Source of the DNA: an uncultured Actinomycetes bacterium
Lineage (GTDB): Bacteria; Actinomycetota; UBA4738; HRBIN12
Assembly (NCBI GenBank): GCA_963823255.1
Contig: CAWGKU010000008.1
Coordinates: 80,075-144,074, forward strand
DNA length: 64,000 bases
Direction: 5' to 3'
Shown: positions 59,630-64,000 of the stretch, piece after piece
Position numbering within the stretch: position 1 is the stretch's first letter
Layout: every line of letters starts with the position of its first letter
The notes under the pieces: generated by a model
What the model was told of the DNA's origin: nothing
What the model saw: the letters and a program-made list of their open reading frames with translations, nothing else
Databases searched by the model: none
Translations under genes and position numbers: made by a program

Positions 59630-60265
59630 ATGCGCAAACGGGTCATCAGGGCGGGCGAGATCGAGATCGAGGACTCGGAGGGGCGCGTGCGCGCCCGGTT
59701 CGGCGTCTCGAACGAGGATCTCCCGTTCATGTCGTTCTACGGTGCGGACGACAAGCTGCGCGCGCGGTTCGGCGTGCAGCCAGACGGTTCGGCCGGCCTG
59801 GCGATCGCCGACGACGAGGGCAAGGTCCGTGCGACCTTCGGCCTGTTCTCCGACGGGTCGGCGAGCATGGCGATGGTCGACCGCAACGGGAGGGTCCGCG
59901 CGAAGTTCGGCCTGGGCACCGAGGGCTCGCCCACCCTCGCGCTCCGCAACAAGGACGGTCAGCTCGGCTTCGTGTACTCGCTCGCGCAGCAGGGCTCGCC
60001 GACGATCTCGCTGCAGGACGAGGACGGCAAGGTGCGCGCCCGCATCGGGCTCGCGGCCGAGGGCTCGCCGATCCTGCGGCTGTTGAACAAGGAGGGCGAG
60101 CTCCGCGCGATCATGGGTCTGACCGGGGACGGGACGCCCGTGATGCAGTTCCTCGACGCGAAGGGCGAACCCGAGTGGACGACACCGAGTTCGTTCTCGC
60201 CGACCGACGTGACCCCTCCCGATGCGCCGAAGCCTTCCGAGCCGGAGGCTCGGGAGCGGGGCTGA
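59630..60265 (+). CDS. tandem-repeat protein: about 7.5 copies of a 23-residue unit (consensus x-h-x-h-x-D-x-x-G-K-V-R-A-x-F-G-L-x-x-x-G-S-P), Pro-rich tail, no signal peptide
   Basis: Repeats were read from the translation (GLAIADDEGKVRATFGLFSDGSA / SMAMVDRNGRVRAKFGLGTEGSP / TISLQDEDGKVRARIGLAAEGSP ...). It is the first gene of the operon that runs to 63176. Confidence 0.65.
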   Translation: MRKRVIRAGEIEIEDSEGRVRARFGVSNEDLPFMSFYGADDKLRARFGVQPDGSAGLAIADDEGKVRATFGLFSDGSASMAMVDRNGRVRAKFGLGTEGSPTLALRNKDGQLGFVYSLAQQGSPTISLQDEDGKVRARIGLAAEGSPILRLLNKEGELRAIMGLTGDGTPVMQFLDAKGEPEWTTPSSFSPTDVTPPDAPKPSEPEARERG

Positions 60266-60271
60266 CGCGGC

Positions 60272-60776
60272 GTGTCAGGATGGTGGGCCGCGGCCTTCGT
60301 CGTCCTGTGGATCCTGGTCGCCGTGCTCGCGGTCGTCGTGGTCGCCCTCGCGCGACAGATCGGCGTGCTACAGCTCCGCCTCGCACCGCTCGGGGCGCTC
60401 GAGATCGACGACGAGGGTCCCCCGCTGGGGGAGGCGCCCGAGGCTCGGGCGGCACGAACGCCTGACGGCTCGTCCACGGTGGTCGGCGGGCCCGGGAGCG
60501 AGCCGGCTGGTGGCGTTCGTCTCGGACACCTGCCCGATCTGCGAGCAGGTCGCGCCCTCGCTGCCGGCGGCCGCCCGCGCGAGCGGGCTCGAGCTGCAGG
60601 TCGTATCGGATCCGGATCTGGAGGTCGCCTACCGCGTCCCGGGGGTGCCGTTCGTCGTCGTGCTCGACGAGCTCGGGCACGTTCGGTCGAAGGGGACCGT
60701 GAACTCGCTCGAGCAGGTCGAGGGTCTGGTCGACACCGCGCGGCGTCGAACGACGCAGGAGCTCCGGGCCGGCTGA
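60272..60776 (+). pseudogene. MauD-like membrane-anchored thioredoxin-fold protein (CPIC active site); 1-nt insertion at about 60503
   Basis: Frame 2 gives VSGWWAAAFVVLWILVAVLAVVVVALARQIGVLQLRLAPLGALE..DGSSTVVGGPGSE. Frame 0 continues RLVAFVSDTCPICEQVAPSL...VPGVPFVVVLDELGHVRSKGTVNSLEQVEGLV. Length is 3n+1. Confidence 0.7.
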
Positions 60777-61300
60777 TGGGGGCCGTCGAGCGAGCCGGGA
60801 CCGAGCTCGCGCGCCGGACGAGCCGCCGTTCGTTCCTCGGCAGGCTCGGCCGAACGATCGTCGCGGTCGCCGGGGGCTCGATGGTGGCCGTCGCGCTCGA
60901 ACCCGACCGCGCCGAGGCCCACCACATCTGCGGCCACCTCTACACGACGGGGTCGTGTCCCCATCCCTACGCGCCGCATTCGAGGACGGACGCGTACGGG
61001 TTCCCGGTGCACCCGCGGCTGGGCTACCCGGTCGACGACGACGGCGCGATCTACCTCTCGGAACGGCAGACGCGGCGGAAGGTGTGTCAGACCGTCGTGC
61101 CCGAACGGTACCCGTTCGTCCAGAACCCCCGCTACGGCGGCGGCTGGAGCCGTTGCTGCAACGGCCGGGTGCGGCACATCCAGGACTGCTGCTCGATCTC
61201 CGACACGCGGATCAACGGTGACGGCGCGGTGCGCGGTTACTGCCCGCGCGGCCGCAAGGTCTTCTGCATCACGTACCGGGAGCTGAACGTCCGATGCTGA
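60776..61300 (+). CDS. Tat-exported cysteine-rich protein homologous to the methylamine/aralkylamine dehydrogenase light chain (MauA-like)
   Basis: The Tat leader TELARRTSRRSFLGRLGRTIVAVAGG parallels the MauA leader. The mature part has 10 Cys, including W-SRCC...QDCC, and a single Trp. The start forms an ATGA overlap with the upstream stop. Confidence 0.7.
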   Translation: MGAVERAGTELARRTSRRSFLGRLGRTIVAVAGGSMVAVALEPDRAEAHHICGHLYTTGSCPHPYAPHSRTDAYGFPVHPRLGYPVDDDGAIYLSERQTRRKVCQTVVPERYPFVQNPRYGGGWSRCCNGRVRHIQDCCSISDTRINGDGAVRGYCPRGRKVFCITYRELNVRC

Positions 61301-61371
61301 GCGAACCCGTCGGTCTCGCGCTCGTCGTGGCGTCGGTGGTGGCGGGGATCTCGAGCCTGTTCGGGCCCTGA
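61294..61371 (+). CDS. possible 25-aa hydrophobic peptide MLSEPVGLALVVASVVAGISSLFGP, or the true 5' end of the next gene interrupted by an in-frame TGA
   Basis: The ATG overlaps the MauA-like stop (ATGCTGA). GC3 is 23/25. It is in the same frame as the 61381 ORF, separated only by TGA plus 3 codons. Confidence 0.4.
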   Translation: MLSEPVGLALVVASVVAGISSLFGP

Positions 61372-61380
61372 GGCCTCTCG

Positions 61381-62514
61381 ATGGTGGAAACCATCACCCC
61401 CGTCGTGCACGGGGGCAGCCGGAGCCGATGGGCGGTTTCGGTCGCCCTGCACGCGATCGGAGCCGCCACGTCCGCCGCGATCGCCGGCGCGCTGCTCGCA
61501 GCTGCCGGCGGGCTGCTCGGTGCGCCCTGGGGCGTTGCGGGCCTGGGACTCGTCGCCGCGTCGGCCGCGCTGTACGTAGCGCGCGAACTCGGGGCACCGG
61601 TGCCGGTGCCGCAGTTGCGGCGGCAGGTGCCCGACTGGTGGCGCACGTTCTTCCCGCCGCACGTCGCTGCGTTGCTGTACGGGATCGGGCTCGGGCCCGG
61701 GTTCCTGACGTACCTGGGCCATGGGACGGTCGTCGTGGTGTCGGTCGCCGCGTTCGCGAGCGGACGACCGCTCGTCGGGGCGGCGGTCCTCGCCCCGTTC
61801 GGTTTGGCCCGCGGGTTGGGGCCCGTGCTGGCGCTTGGCGTGCGCTCACCGAGCGAGGGAGCGGCCCTCGTCGAGCGCCTCGAGCGGTCGGCGTCCCGGG
61901 CGCGATGGCAGGTCGCGAACGCGCTCGCGCTGTCGGCGGTCGCGGCGGCGATCGTGGTCGAGATCCGGACGTTCGAGGGACCTTCCGGGTTCGGCGGGCT
62001 CGCGGCCGCCGTGCTGGGGCTCACGTTCACCGCGGCCGCGGTGACGAAGCTGGCGCGCGGAGCCGCGTGGAGGCGGACACTTGCGGCGTACCGGCTCCCG
62101 GGCGGGGTCTCGCGGCTCGTGGCCTCCGTGATCCCGATCGTCGAGCTCGTGATCGTCGGGCTCGTGGTCGTGGGGCTGGGAGCGACGGCGGGGCTCGTGT
62201 CGCTCGTGGCGCTGGTGTCGTTCTCCGCGGCGATCGTGGTGGGTCGCGTTCGGTCGGGCCGGCGTCTGGGGTGCGGGTGCTTCGGTGGTTCGACGACCCG
62301 GGATTACCGGGTTCTGCTCACCCGCAACCTCGCGCTCGCGGGGATCGCGCTCGGGGCGTGGAGGATGGGGGAGGACGCGCCGCTCGTGCGATCGCTCCGC
62401 GAACCCGGCGGCGCCGACCTGCTCCCTGCGGCCCTGATCGTGCTCGGCCTCGCCCTGGCCGCGTGGGTGGGGGCGACGGCGTTCGCAGGCGCAGGCCGGA
62501 GATCCGGTCGTTGA
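61381..62514 (+). CDS. polytopic membrane protein: Cys-free N-terminal multi-TM domain fused to a C-terminal MauE/DoxX-type domain
   Basis: The C-terminal half carries the MauE hallmark GCGCFGG and the flanking TM pattern. The N-terminal about 190 aa has 5-6 TM helices and no family is recognised. Confidence 0.65.
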   Translation: MVETITPVVHGGSRSRWAVSVALHAIGAATSAAIAGALLAAAGGLLGAPWGVAGLGLVAASAALYVARELGAPVPVPQLRRQVPDWWRTFFPPHVAALLYGIGLGPGFLTYLGHGTVVVVSVAAFASGRPLVGAAVLAPFGLARGLGPVLALGVRSPSEGAALVERLERSASRARWQVANALALSAVAAAIVVEIRTFEGPSGFGGLAAAVLGLTFTAAAVTKLARGAAWRRTLAAYRLPGGVSRLVASVIPIVELVIVGLVVVGLGATAGLVSLVALVSFSAAIVVGRVRSGRRLGCGCFGGSTTRDYRVLLTRNLALAGIALGAWRMGEDAPLVRSLREPGGADLLPAALIVLGLALAAWVGATAFAGAGRRSGR

Positions 62515-63176
62515 GGCGTCAAGCGCTCGGGCTCGGCGCGCTCGTCGCGGTCACGGCGATCGCGCTCGCGCTGCCCGCTCTGGCGCACCACACCGACCAG
62601 GTTGATCCGAACGACACGGACGGGAAGCTGGACCTGGAGCAGGTGGGGTTCGATCACGAGGGAGAAGTGCCGAGCTGGCGGATGGTGACGTTCTCGACCT
62701 GGACCGTCCGCTCGATCTGGGATCGAGGGAACTTCGTCGTGCAGCTCGACACGAGGGGCGACGCCGCCGCCGATTACGTCGCGGTCGTCCGATCGAACGG
62801 CCGGCGGCTGATCGCCACGTTGTTCCGGCTCCGGAGGAGCGGCCGTCAGATCGAGGTCACCTCGCTCCGCACCGACAAGCAAGACTCGTGGGCCGCCACG
62901 GTGACCGTCCCGCTGAGCGAGGTCTCGATCGGACCGAACCGCAATTCGTACTTCTGGTCGGTGCTCTCGAGCTTCACGGGTGGGAGCTGCGCGCGGACGT
63001 GTCTCGACACTGCTCCCGACGACGGGATGATCGAGCAGCCGCTCCCCGGCGTCACGCCGTCGCCGTCGCCGACCCCGCCCCCGACGCCGACCCCGCCCTC
63101 CGACGCCGACCCCGCCCCCGACGCCGTCCGCGGGCCCGTCCACTTGACGCCGGAGGGCGAAGAGCCGCATCTATGA
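62511..63176 (+). CDS. secreted protein of unknown function with Pro/Thr/Ser-rich C-terminal tail
   Basis: The TTG start overlaps the upstream stop (TTGA). The signal peptide is LRRQALGLGALVAVTAIALALPALA|HH. The body looks beta-rich with one Cys pair (GGSCARTC). Confidence 0.55.
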   Translation: MRRQALGLGALVAVTAIALALPALAHHTDQVDPNDTDGKLDLEQVGFDHEGEVPSWRMVTFSTWTVRSIWDRGNFVVQLDTRGDAAADYVAVVRSNGRRLIATLFRLRRSGRQIEVTSLRTDKQDSWAATVTVPLSEVSIGPNRNSYFWSVLSSFTGGSCARTCLDTAPDDGMIEQPLPGVTPSPSPTPPPTPTPPSDADPAPDAVRGPVHLTPEGEEPHL

Positions 63177-63186
63177 TGGAGGCCTC

Positions 63187-63262
63187 GGGGACGTAGCTCA
63201 GTCGGTAGAGCACCTGCTTTGCAAGCAGGGGGTCGGCGGTTCGAGTCCGCTCGTCTCCACCA
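63187..63262 (+). tRNA. alaT: tRNA-Ala (anticodon TGC), CCA encoded
   Basis: A hand-folded cloverleaf gives acceptor GGGGACG/CGTCTCC with the G3:U70 identity pair, anticodon loop TTTGCAA and T-loop TTCGAGT. Confidence 0.92.
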
Positions 63263-64000
63263 CTAAATGCCCAGGTAGAGGCGCAGATTCATCTCGATGT
63301 GACACCGCCCAAACTGCCTTGTCGCTCTCCTCGTGTACCCTCGGTGTACCGGAAGGAAGAGGTTCGGACGGTTGGCTTGGATCAGGACCTACGAGGTTGA
63401 GTCGGGCGCAAGGTATCGAGTCTTCTGGAAGGACCCGTCGGGCAAGCAGCACGGCAAGGTCTTCAAGCGTCAGAGCGACGCACGTTCCTTCCAACGGTCC
63501 CTCGCCCATGCTCTGGACACAGGGGGCTACACGGACCCTCGTCGAGGGCGTATCACCCTCGCTGAACTGTGGACCGACTTCATCGAGTCTCCTCCGGCTC
63601 CGCTCGCCGCGAGCACCAAGTCTCTGCTATCAAATGCAGTGGCGCGTCCATATCCGACCGCGACTTGGGGATCGACCCATCAACTCGTTGCACCCGGAGG
63701 ATGTGCGCCGCTTCATGTCGGATCTGAATAGGGATGGTGTCGGCGCAACAAGCGTGGACAGCGTCCACCGTCTGCTCCGGAGACTCCTGTCGGTCGCAGT
63801 CAAGGACCGCCGAATCGCGTTCAACCCGGCGTCCGGAATCCATGCACCGCGACCTCCCCGAAAGGAGATGCGGTACCTGAATGCCGAGGAGGTGCGACGC
63901 CTCGCATCCGAGGTCCCGAACCGCTACGAGGCCCTGATTCTTACCTTGGCCTATGCCGGCCTTCGCATCGGTGAGGCGGCAGCCCTACGAACCCGCAATG
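63263..64000 (+). mobile_element. left end of an integrated element (genomic island or prophage) inserted at tRNA-Ala; it continues beyond the window
   Basis: A tyrosine integrase gene begins 70 nt after the tRNA 3' end, and GC visibly drops right after the tRNA. Confidence 0.6.
63333..64000 (+). pseudogene. int: tyrosine-type site-specific integrase (phage integrase family), 3' end outside the window; 1-nt insertion at about 63627
   Basis: Frame 0 gives ...WIRTYEVESGARYRVFWKDPSGKQHGKVFKRQSDARSFQRSL..ITLAELWTDFIES..STKSL. Frame 1 continues YQMQWRVHIRPRLGDRPINSLHPEDVRRFMSDLNRDGVGATSVDSVHRLLRRLLSVAVKDRRIAFNPA...LILTLAYAGLRIGEAAALR. A possible TTG start at 63372 follows SD ggaaggaagagg. Confidence 0.8.

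Follow-up and report, generated by a model that had tools for sequence, protein, structure and literature searches.

A cysteine-rich protein family with a MauA-type Tat leader, clustered with homologues of MauD, MauF and MauE in uncultured Actinomycetota

A stretch of 64,000 nucleotides from an uncultured Actinomycetes bacterium (assembly GCA_963823255.1, contig CAWGKU010000008.1, positions 80,075 to 144,074 of the forward strand; hereafter the window) raises the question of what a small protein can be when its leader and its neighbours are those of MauA, the light chain of methylamine dehydrogenase (MADH), and the rest of it is not recognizable as such. The gene concerned, here called gene X, occupies positions 60776-61300 of the + strand, from an ATG at 60776 to a TGA at 61298-61300; it is an unbroken open reading frame (ORF) of 174 codons plus the stop, its product begins MGAVERAGTELARRTSRRSFLGRLGRTIVAVAGGSMVAVALEPDRAEA, and it combines a twin-arginine translocation (Tat) leader with ten cysteines and one tryptophan. 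A preliminary description of the locus had taken X for a MauA-like light chain. The intact ORF, the Tat leader and the strings it quoted are all there, and the leader, the mau-like gene position and the helper genes do recall MauA; the mature domain does not, and neither MauB nor MauG is encoded nearby. On balance, we lean slightly towards X being a dedicated extracytoplasmic client of a MauF/MauE/MauD-type oxidative-folding cassette, and not a light chain bearing tryptophan tryptophylquinone (TTQ).

Leader and mature domain of gene X

The leader spans residues 1-48 (60776-60919, + strand) and is of the MauA type according to hhalign; cleavage is predicted after AEA, leaving a mature protein of about 125-126 residues. 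Residues 12-34 read ARRTSRRSFLGRLGRTIVAVAGG. The twin arginines, R17 and R18 (60824-60829), belong to TSRRSFLG, which fits the Tat pattern S/T-R-R-x-F-L and is followed by the hydrophobic IVAVAGGSMVAVAL, as expected of a Tat substrate, and the Tat signal model TIGR01409 scores X at 16.9 bits for a cut-off of 16.7. The MauA model TIGR02659 matches residues 4-37 only, with 14.6 bits against a cut-off of 196.85. When the X family profile was compared by hhalign with one MauA, the result was E=3.6e-5, confined to the leader; with a 40-member PF02975 alignment of MauA, it was a probability of 96% and E=1.8e-9 over 28 columns (X residues 2-29), the leader consensus common to the two families being RTSRRSFLGRLG. 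On the strength of these profile comparisons the X leader is homologous to that of MauA, a likeness that the preliminary description had already pointed out, and export of X by the Tat pathway would be the expected consequence.

Homologues of X form at least 621 clusters at 90% identity and are present in at least 587 species-representative genomes, with 67-96% identity across hundreds of species; all 80 retained X loci come from uncultured Actinomycetota. A second subfamily (type 2), 42-45% identical to the first (type 1) and carrying an insert of about 20 residues, is found on at least 432 metagenome contigs. Our comparisons cover 86 type-1 loci, the type-2 loci L086-L165, and the mau clusters of Hyphomicrobium (L166) and Paracoccus (L167). 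Family members have no Pfam domain and no name beyond “hypothetical” or “Tat signal domain-containing”; a profile search of 1.84 billion representatives returned a narrow family together with fragments and frameshifted chimeras, and MauA was absent among the 150 matches listed. Several of the X loci examined, the window included, lie a few kb from gyrB-gyrA, among housekeeping genes. Judged from these sequences, X is an unannotated, orphan protein family of uncultured soil actinobacteria, and its conservation is far too good for a chance ORF.

The ten cysteines of the mature region (C52, C61, C104, C127, C128, C138, C139, C156, C164, and C174) and its sole tryptophan, W124 (codon 61145-61147, + strand), are as numerous as first counted and are invariant in the alignment of the two subfamilies, together with D137, F163, Y155, Y167, a number of Arg and Asp residues and two motifs, C-G-H and RINGD. 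The C-G-H motif is C52-G53-H54; H50 and H63 around it are near-invariant, some type-2 members having Ala for H63. The surroundings of the tryptophan read GGGW-SRCC-NGRVRHI-QDCC, so that the strings given in the preliminary description were correct and its spacer of eight was a trivial miscount, seven residues separating SRCC from QDCC (eight from CC to DCC).

The MauA strings given there were correct too, as PDB chain 3c75_L reads ...ATASWVASCYNPTDGQSYLIAYRDCCG...NDIIWCFGAE.... The second TTQ residue, Trp108, had been placed opposite V-F-C-I-T (X residues 162-166), that is, at F163 (codon 61262-61264, + strand), and this Phe proved to be invariant. Of the 86 loci, 78 encode a mature region with one Trp and no more, and the remaining eight have a second; in L065, the one of these eight that was inspected, the additional Trp is in the N-terminal part and does not occupy the F163 position. 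X in the window is full-length and collinear with its homologues, untouched by the indel problem of this assembly, and no correction brings back a second Trp. With W124 as the sole invariant Trp and Phe always standing where the second TTQ residue had been proposed, a Trp-Trp TTQ cannot form in X, as had been concluded before.

The further claim that mature X retains the context of the first TTQ residue, Trp57, found no support in our comparisons. Pfam gave no match to X at E up to 1, PF02975 missing the mature part; TIGR02659 and searches of PDB sequences (phmmer, and hmmsearch with the family profile) yielded no MauA match to mature X, and the family profile retrieved 0 PDB chains at E up to 10. 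Overall, searches of Pfam, NCBIfam and the PDB with X and family profiles found nothing beyond the Tat leader. We compared the X profile with the 40-member MauA profile by hhalign, using the full length, the mature parts or the C-terminal halves, and the local, low-mact and global settings; the leader alone aligned. Mature X against mature MauA reached a probability of 0.9%; with the C-terminal halves, X VFCITYRE was placed on MauA SYLIAYRD, a non-significant alignment (P=0.02), and the register of the preliminary description was never chosen in any mode. The AlphaFold model of X (mf8d46fc598b3; pLDDT of at least 90 over the mature domain) has a helix at residues 103-111 and strands at 119-128, 131-140 and 161-173, and among the best 50 of its 240 Foldseek matches in the PDB there was no light chain of MADH or aromatic amine dehydrogenase (AADH), whose fold is represented by PDB 2BBK, 1MG2, 3C75 and 2AGY, the best match having E=0.55 and TM scores being at most 0.2. 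Because mature X matches no MauA profile, Pfam family, PDB sequence or light-chain fold, equating W124 with Trp57 is unsupported by either the sequence comparisons or the model.

X might nevertheless be a true, extremely diverged MauA, i.e., the small subunit of an uncharacterized quinoprotein or other dehydrogenase, with W124 as the former Trp57 and a large subunit, perhaps along with a modifying enzyme, encoded elsewhere; we hold this to be unlikely, though worth keeping in mind. Several features besides the homologous leader speak for it: the gene stands after a mauD homologue with all the small-subunit helpers F, E and D present, mature X is small (about 125 residues, 131 in MauA), very Cys-rich and endowed with a DCC motif, and the three-stranded sheet of the model bears W124, the DCC and F163-C164. 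By eye, moreover, the landmarks of the two proteins are collinear (C...W-x2/3-C...D-C-C...C...aromatic-C...Y...C). We regard this W...C / DCC / aromatic-C likeness as a lead, not as homology, given the hhalign, profile, PDB and Foldseek results above, which all count against a diverged MauA, as do the cysteines, ten in X and 12 (six disulfides) in the canonical MauA of the alignment. X also differs from MauA in having a single Trp in place of the TTQ pair.

Helper genes and a predicted selenocysteine

From the 1990s on, all that was known of MauF, MauE and MauD was that these genes are required for the small subunit of MADH. Directly upstream of X, just as mauD precedes mauA, is a MauD-like gene (60272-60776, + strand) coding for a membrane-anchored thioredoxin-fold protein with a CPIC motif at 60531-60542; its two halves both match TIGR02661, Thioredoxin_3 is recognized as well, and hhalign against true MauD gives a probability of 99.8% and E=3e-28. 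Directly downstream of X is a gene in which a MauF-like domain, with a predicted selenocysteine (Sec), is fused to MauE (61294-62514, + strand). Its MauE domain matches PF07291 with E=5e-20, and its translation contains CGC at 62272-62280 (+ strand), within GCGCFG, corresponding to the CXC-F-G active-site motif defined for MauE (bioRxiv 10.64898/2026.03.05.709764). According to the same work, which dates from 2026, MauE replaces DsbB as a disulfide generator by means of its CXC site, and MauD is likely its DsbA-like partner. The X loci share with that general pathway a CXC-F-G MauE, a thioredoxin-fold CxxC partner, the occurrence of MauE without a recognizable MauA and, in type-2 loci, fusions of MauE with a thioredoxin; they differ from it in that MauE and MauD are not free-standing and form an operon with one Cys-rich client, a MauF homologue and a gene that we call Y. 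Being locked in an operon with X, MauE and MauD would therefore make up a dedicated rather than a generalist system.

The MauD-like gene of the window has its frame shifted by a 1-nt insertion at about 60499-60501 (an extra A, GAGCG-A-GCCGG). The extra A is shared with the 96%-identical locus L006 and absent from L007, L008 and L013; frameshifts are scattered over various genes in the loci from MFD-named metagenome-assembled genomes (L006, L019, L038, L063, L077, and L081), and MauD is split in L004. The insertion is probably a systematic assembly error, the alternative being a real mutation shared by the two loci.

In canonical mau clusters, the gene order is mauFBEDACJG (PMC4543880). The X loci resemble them by the long Tat leader with its shared core, the position of the gene after mauD, and the clustering of mauD, mauE and mauF homologues; they differ by the fusion of MauF to MauE, by the TGA (Sec) in the MauF part, by their hosts (Proteobacteria for mau clusters, uncultured Actinomycetota for X) and by what is missing around them. 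Hyphomicrobium MauB, MauC (amicyanin), MauJ and MauG, used as tblastn queries, had no match in 167 sequences (1.8 Mb of flanks, about 10 kb per side) or in the whole window, and the Pfam gene tables of three loci contain neither PF06433 nor PF03150. The cluster thus keeps exactly the mau genes that the literature describes as specific to small-subunit production, without those for the heavy chain, for the electron acceptor and for the enzyme that forms TTQ, and the lack of MauB and MauG in all 167 sequences is a further argument against X being a diverged MauA.

The first 200 residues of the fusion gene are homologous to MauF, the first gene of mauFBEDACJG clusters. MauF has no Pfam or NCBIfam model, and the Hyphomicrobium and Paracoccus proteins were identified by their cluster position; hhalign against the former gave a probability of 99.3% (E=2e-20, 185 columns) and against the latter one of 99.2% (E=2.8e-19, 179 columns). 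The MauF-like ORF begins at ATG 61294 and encodes, in the same frame, a transmembrane segment (MLSEPVGLALVVASVVAGISSLFGP) before reaching an in-frame TGA (61369-61371, + strand) that aligns with the Cys of MauF SPCG and that we predict to be read as Sec. A TGA stands at this very site in 83 of 83 type-1 loci (76 distinct sequences), followed in the window by GLS-MVETITPVV; the peptide before it is conserved, and in the next three codons there are synonymous changes, the encoded G-[LMF]-S being maintained. The same column holds Cys in true MauF (WSPCGYS) and in 57 type-2 loci (WSPCG[FL]SM), and two other type-2 loci (L135 and L141) independently have TGA there.

Two hairpins resembling a selenocysteine insertion sequence (SECIS) follow the TGA, at 61380-61395 and 61397-61415 on the + strand (+11 to +26 and +28 to +46). 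RNAalifold shows an invariant stem for the first and compensatory changes in three pairs of the second; compared with shuffles, the 45 nt downstream have a mean z of -2.5 in TGA forms and +0.6 in Cys forms, a signal that is partly confounded by amino-acid conservation. The RNA downstream of the TGA also folds in L135 and L141, the L141 hairpin having the same offset and a different sequence. No Rfam family matches the hairpins, aragorn detected no tRNA-Sec either in the window or among the 166 scanned loci, and TGA is otherwise an ordinary stop in the window, that of X included. With Cys homologues, a UGA and a hairpin, the classical signature is there, and the MauF-like gene appears to encode a selenoprotein; should this reading be right, the TGA would mark the redox-active residue of MauF. 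To our knowledge, MauF is not known as a selenoprotein and has no assigned function, and the literature that we searched contains nothing on MauF as a selenoprotein. Like bacterial selenoproteins of the thiol-disulfide oxidoreductase type, the MauF-like gene has a TGA, Cys in the same column of its homologues and a downstream hairpin; unlike them, it codes for a polytopic membrane protein, whose first transmembrane helix contains or adjoins the predicted Sec.

A split gene, stopping at the TGA and restarting at an ATG 9 nt further on with the TGA+GG serving as a Shine-Dalgarno sequence (GAGG), was also considered and judged less likely, because the family would then lose its one invariant Cys position, the three codons in between show the evolution of coding sequence, the Cys forms have the Met in their interior, and the hairpin is confined to the TGA forms. 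It is at this internal Met (ATG 61381) that gene callers start the MauF-like gene, losing the first helix with its predicted Sec, on this reading a systematic misannotation.

The junction of X with the MauF-like gene reads ATGCTGA (61294-61300), the last Cys codon and the stop of X overlapping the start of the MauF-like ORF, and other loci have the same overlap with GTG. Such an arrangement suggests that the client and its maturation protein are coupled in translation.

Candidate roles of X

How, then, could these parts work together? X is encoded in an operon, its stop overlapping the MauF-MauE start. If it is indeed the client of the cassette, it would leave the cytoplasm via Tat with its MauA-homologous leader. 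Outside the membrane, the CxxC of the MauD homologue would oxidize the ten invariant cysteines into five disulfides; the CXC of MauE would then re-oxidize MauD and pass the electrons to the quinone pool as DsbB does, a step for which the activity published for MauE is the basis. A third redox centre, Sec here and Cys elsewhere, would come from the MauF-like domain joined to MauE, and it probably relays or isomerizes disulfides. Mature X would end up as a compact, disulfide-locked domain with W124 most simply explained as a core residue, and it would probably act together with the co-clustered, presumably secreted Y. An even number of cysteines, all invariant, and an ordered mature fold without a PDB relative are in favour of this client role. 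The shared leader, gene position and three helpers suggest, furthermore, that MauFED plus the leader constitute a maturation module that is portable and whose cargo here, whether acquired or retained, is a different one.

What is known here is a mau-type maturation cassette for a small subunit; what is new is a MauF with a predicted Sec and a widespread orphan Cys-rich cargo. The three helpers and the MauA-type leader travel with this cargo in hundreds of uncultured actinobacterial species without nearby dehydrogenase genes, so that what the cassette and the leader do can be dissected on another client, independent of MauA. The selenocysteine predicted in place of the SPCG Cys, if true, also amounts to a prediction of the catalytic residue of MauF.

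Several points weigh against the client role. The high conservation of X, its invariant His, Asp, Tyr and Arg residues and an invariant Trp beside CC and DCC suggest a catalytic or cofactor-binding role that goes beyond a passive disulfide knot. Tat export usually implies folding or cofactor loading in the cytoplasm, which fits poorly with oxidation solely after export; this objection is eased by MauA itself, which sets the same precedent. One has to add that the MauD-like gene is frameshifted in the window, probably through the assembly error discussed above, and that MauB or MauG could sit elsewhere in these genomes, beyond the approximately 10 kb per side that we examined. Finally, what is shown directly is that helpers and leader have their mau homologues and that the genes are linked; export, disulfides, the path of the electrons and the partnership of X with Y are inferred.

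The invariant polar residues and the conservation of X may thus leave room for a cofactor or an enzymatic function, and the new orphan family may hide a cofactor or a partner enzyme. X could then be an extracytoplasmic redox protein with Y as its partner and with a new cofactor, either derived from the protein itself (mono-Trp quinone or Cys-Trp cross-link) or metallic (Cu or Fe-S in the segment H-x-C-G-H...C-P-H), a reading that we find rather doubtful. It would account for the Tat leader, for W124 being invariant between GGG and RCC, for an invariant D137 preceding CC as Asp76 does in MauA, and for the invariant C52-G53-H54 flanked by the near-invariant H50 and H63; the confidence of the model is lower at residues 50-60, as is often the case for sites modelled without their ligand, Y has weak Foldseek matches to DOMON and cellobiose dehydrogenase (CDH) cytochrome sandwiches, and the selenocysteine predicted among the maturation proteins hints that the redox chemistry is demanding. 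On the other hand, no MauG was found by tblastn in any flank, the Pfam gene tables of three loci list no radical S-adenosylmethionine (SAM) gene, as QhpD would be, and no conserved flavoprotein gene, H63 is replaced by Ala in some type-2 members, the even number of cysteines suits five disulfides, and all the Foldseek matches of Y are above E=0.001. A flavin adenine dinucleotide (FAD)/berberine bridge enzyme (BBE) oxidase near the type-2 locus L098 was considered as a modifier of the Trp and rejected, being found at only three loci and at varying distances; an oxidase that is not conserved gives no help to the cofactor hypothesis.

Taken one step further, X would be the catalytic small subunit of a new extracytoplasmic redox enzyme of soil Actinomycetota, W124 being converted to a cofactor without MauG, by the Sec-MauF-MauE/MauD set, and Y serving as partner or acceptor; this strikes us as improbable. 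The cofactor would in that case be a mono-tryptophan quinone or a Cys-Trp cross-link formed with the assistance of Cys or Sec, W124 lying beside RCC and facing DCC. The cysteine tryptophylquinone (CTQ)-like option of the preliminary description has its model in QhpC, the gamma subunit of quinohemoprotein amine dehydrogenase (QHNDH), a small, heavily cross-linked protein with CTQ, thioethers and one modified Trp. X differs from it by the Tat leader, the ten cysteines and the lack of a sequence match to any PDB chain, QHNDH gamma included, and neither QhpD-like (radical-SAM) nor QhpE-like (subtilisin-like) genes are listed in the Pfam gene tables of the three loci.

The company of MauE and MauD also brings to mind Streptomyces, where decRiPPter found MauE/MauD genes beside precursors with at least eight Cys (PMC7794033). 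[quoted passage not shown] We consider this very improbable, as X is 174 residues long and its Tat signal is an ordinary one, its identity of 67-96% in at least 587 species is far too high for an effector, several loci lie near the gyrB-gyrA housekeeping genes, and the cluster has no protease, transporter or immunity genes.

Gene arrangements, Y and REP

Nearly all of the 86 type-1 loci run MauD, X, MauF-like; in three of them (L051, L071, and L083) the MauF-like gene stands 0.8 to 5 kb further downstream. The type-2 loci show this order as well. The genes of the cluster are arranged in at least three ways, and their genomic surroundings differ, those of L002 being unrelated. In type 1, MauE and Y are fused or adjacent downstream, or divergent upstream, depending on the locus. 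The divergent arrangement, with a separate MauF-like gene of about 220 codons after X, is seen, for example, in L047, L056, L062, L064, L067, L068, L078 and L084; the stand-alone MauF-like proteins of L047, L056, L062, L068 and L078 have an additional Cys (..C-x-PFG..) that is missing from the MauE-fused forms and that may be a resolving cysteine.

Type-2 loci (for example L098, 8900-11930) have a MauE-MauD fusion, then X with its insert, then a MauF-like gene that is mostly of the Cys form and ends in a C-terminal repeat domain of about 300 residues with repeated ...LAW... segments. This domain was compared with Y, REP (see below), MauB and MauJ, and no relationship was found. Two database ORFs, P0133 and P0135, have MauD, or MauE plus MauD, fused with X.

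Gene Y (62511-63176, + strand) starts at TTG 62511 or GTG 62463 and codes for a putative secreted beta-sandwich protein, recognized by synteny and always clustered with the system. Its 120 homologues include no annotated one, and no family could be assigned. The AlphaFold model is a beta-sandwich with a pLDDT of 84, and its weak Foldseek matches are to sandwiches of the DOMON, CDH cytochrome and CBM9 types, with E between 0.008 and 0.1. Two motifs can be seen in Y, DP-x-D-x2-G-x2-D near the mature N-terminus, which starts with HH in the window, and C-x3-C-x-D near the end of the folded domain. A tRNA-Ala gene (63187-63262) comes right after the cluster, followed by an ORF (63333-63731) without a Pfam match; the edge of an integrated element was considered over 63187-63731, with no evidence found for one.

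The gene immediately upstream of the MauD-like gene (59630-60265, + strand), traced by tblastn synteny, codes for a repeat protein that we call REP, with similar repeated segments (e.g., DGKVRAxFGL...DGSP), no obvious signal peptide and no Pfam family. Searches of Pfam and NCBIfam with the MauF-like N-domain, Y and REP returned nothing except a sub-threshold HupE_UreJ_2 match for the type-2 MauF-like protein, and comparison of Y and REP with MauB, MauC, MauJ, MauG and other mau-cluster proteins revealed no relation. REP is present in most MauE-fused loci, 59 of the loci having given a near-full-length sequence for alignment, and is absent, for example, from L002 and from the loci whose MauE and Y lie upstream and on the other strand; its membership of the system is, in other words, optional. 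In the cytoplasm, it could serve the Tat client as a partner or chaperone. In L001, the stop of REP overlaps the start of the MauD-like gene.

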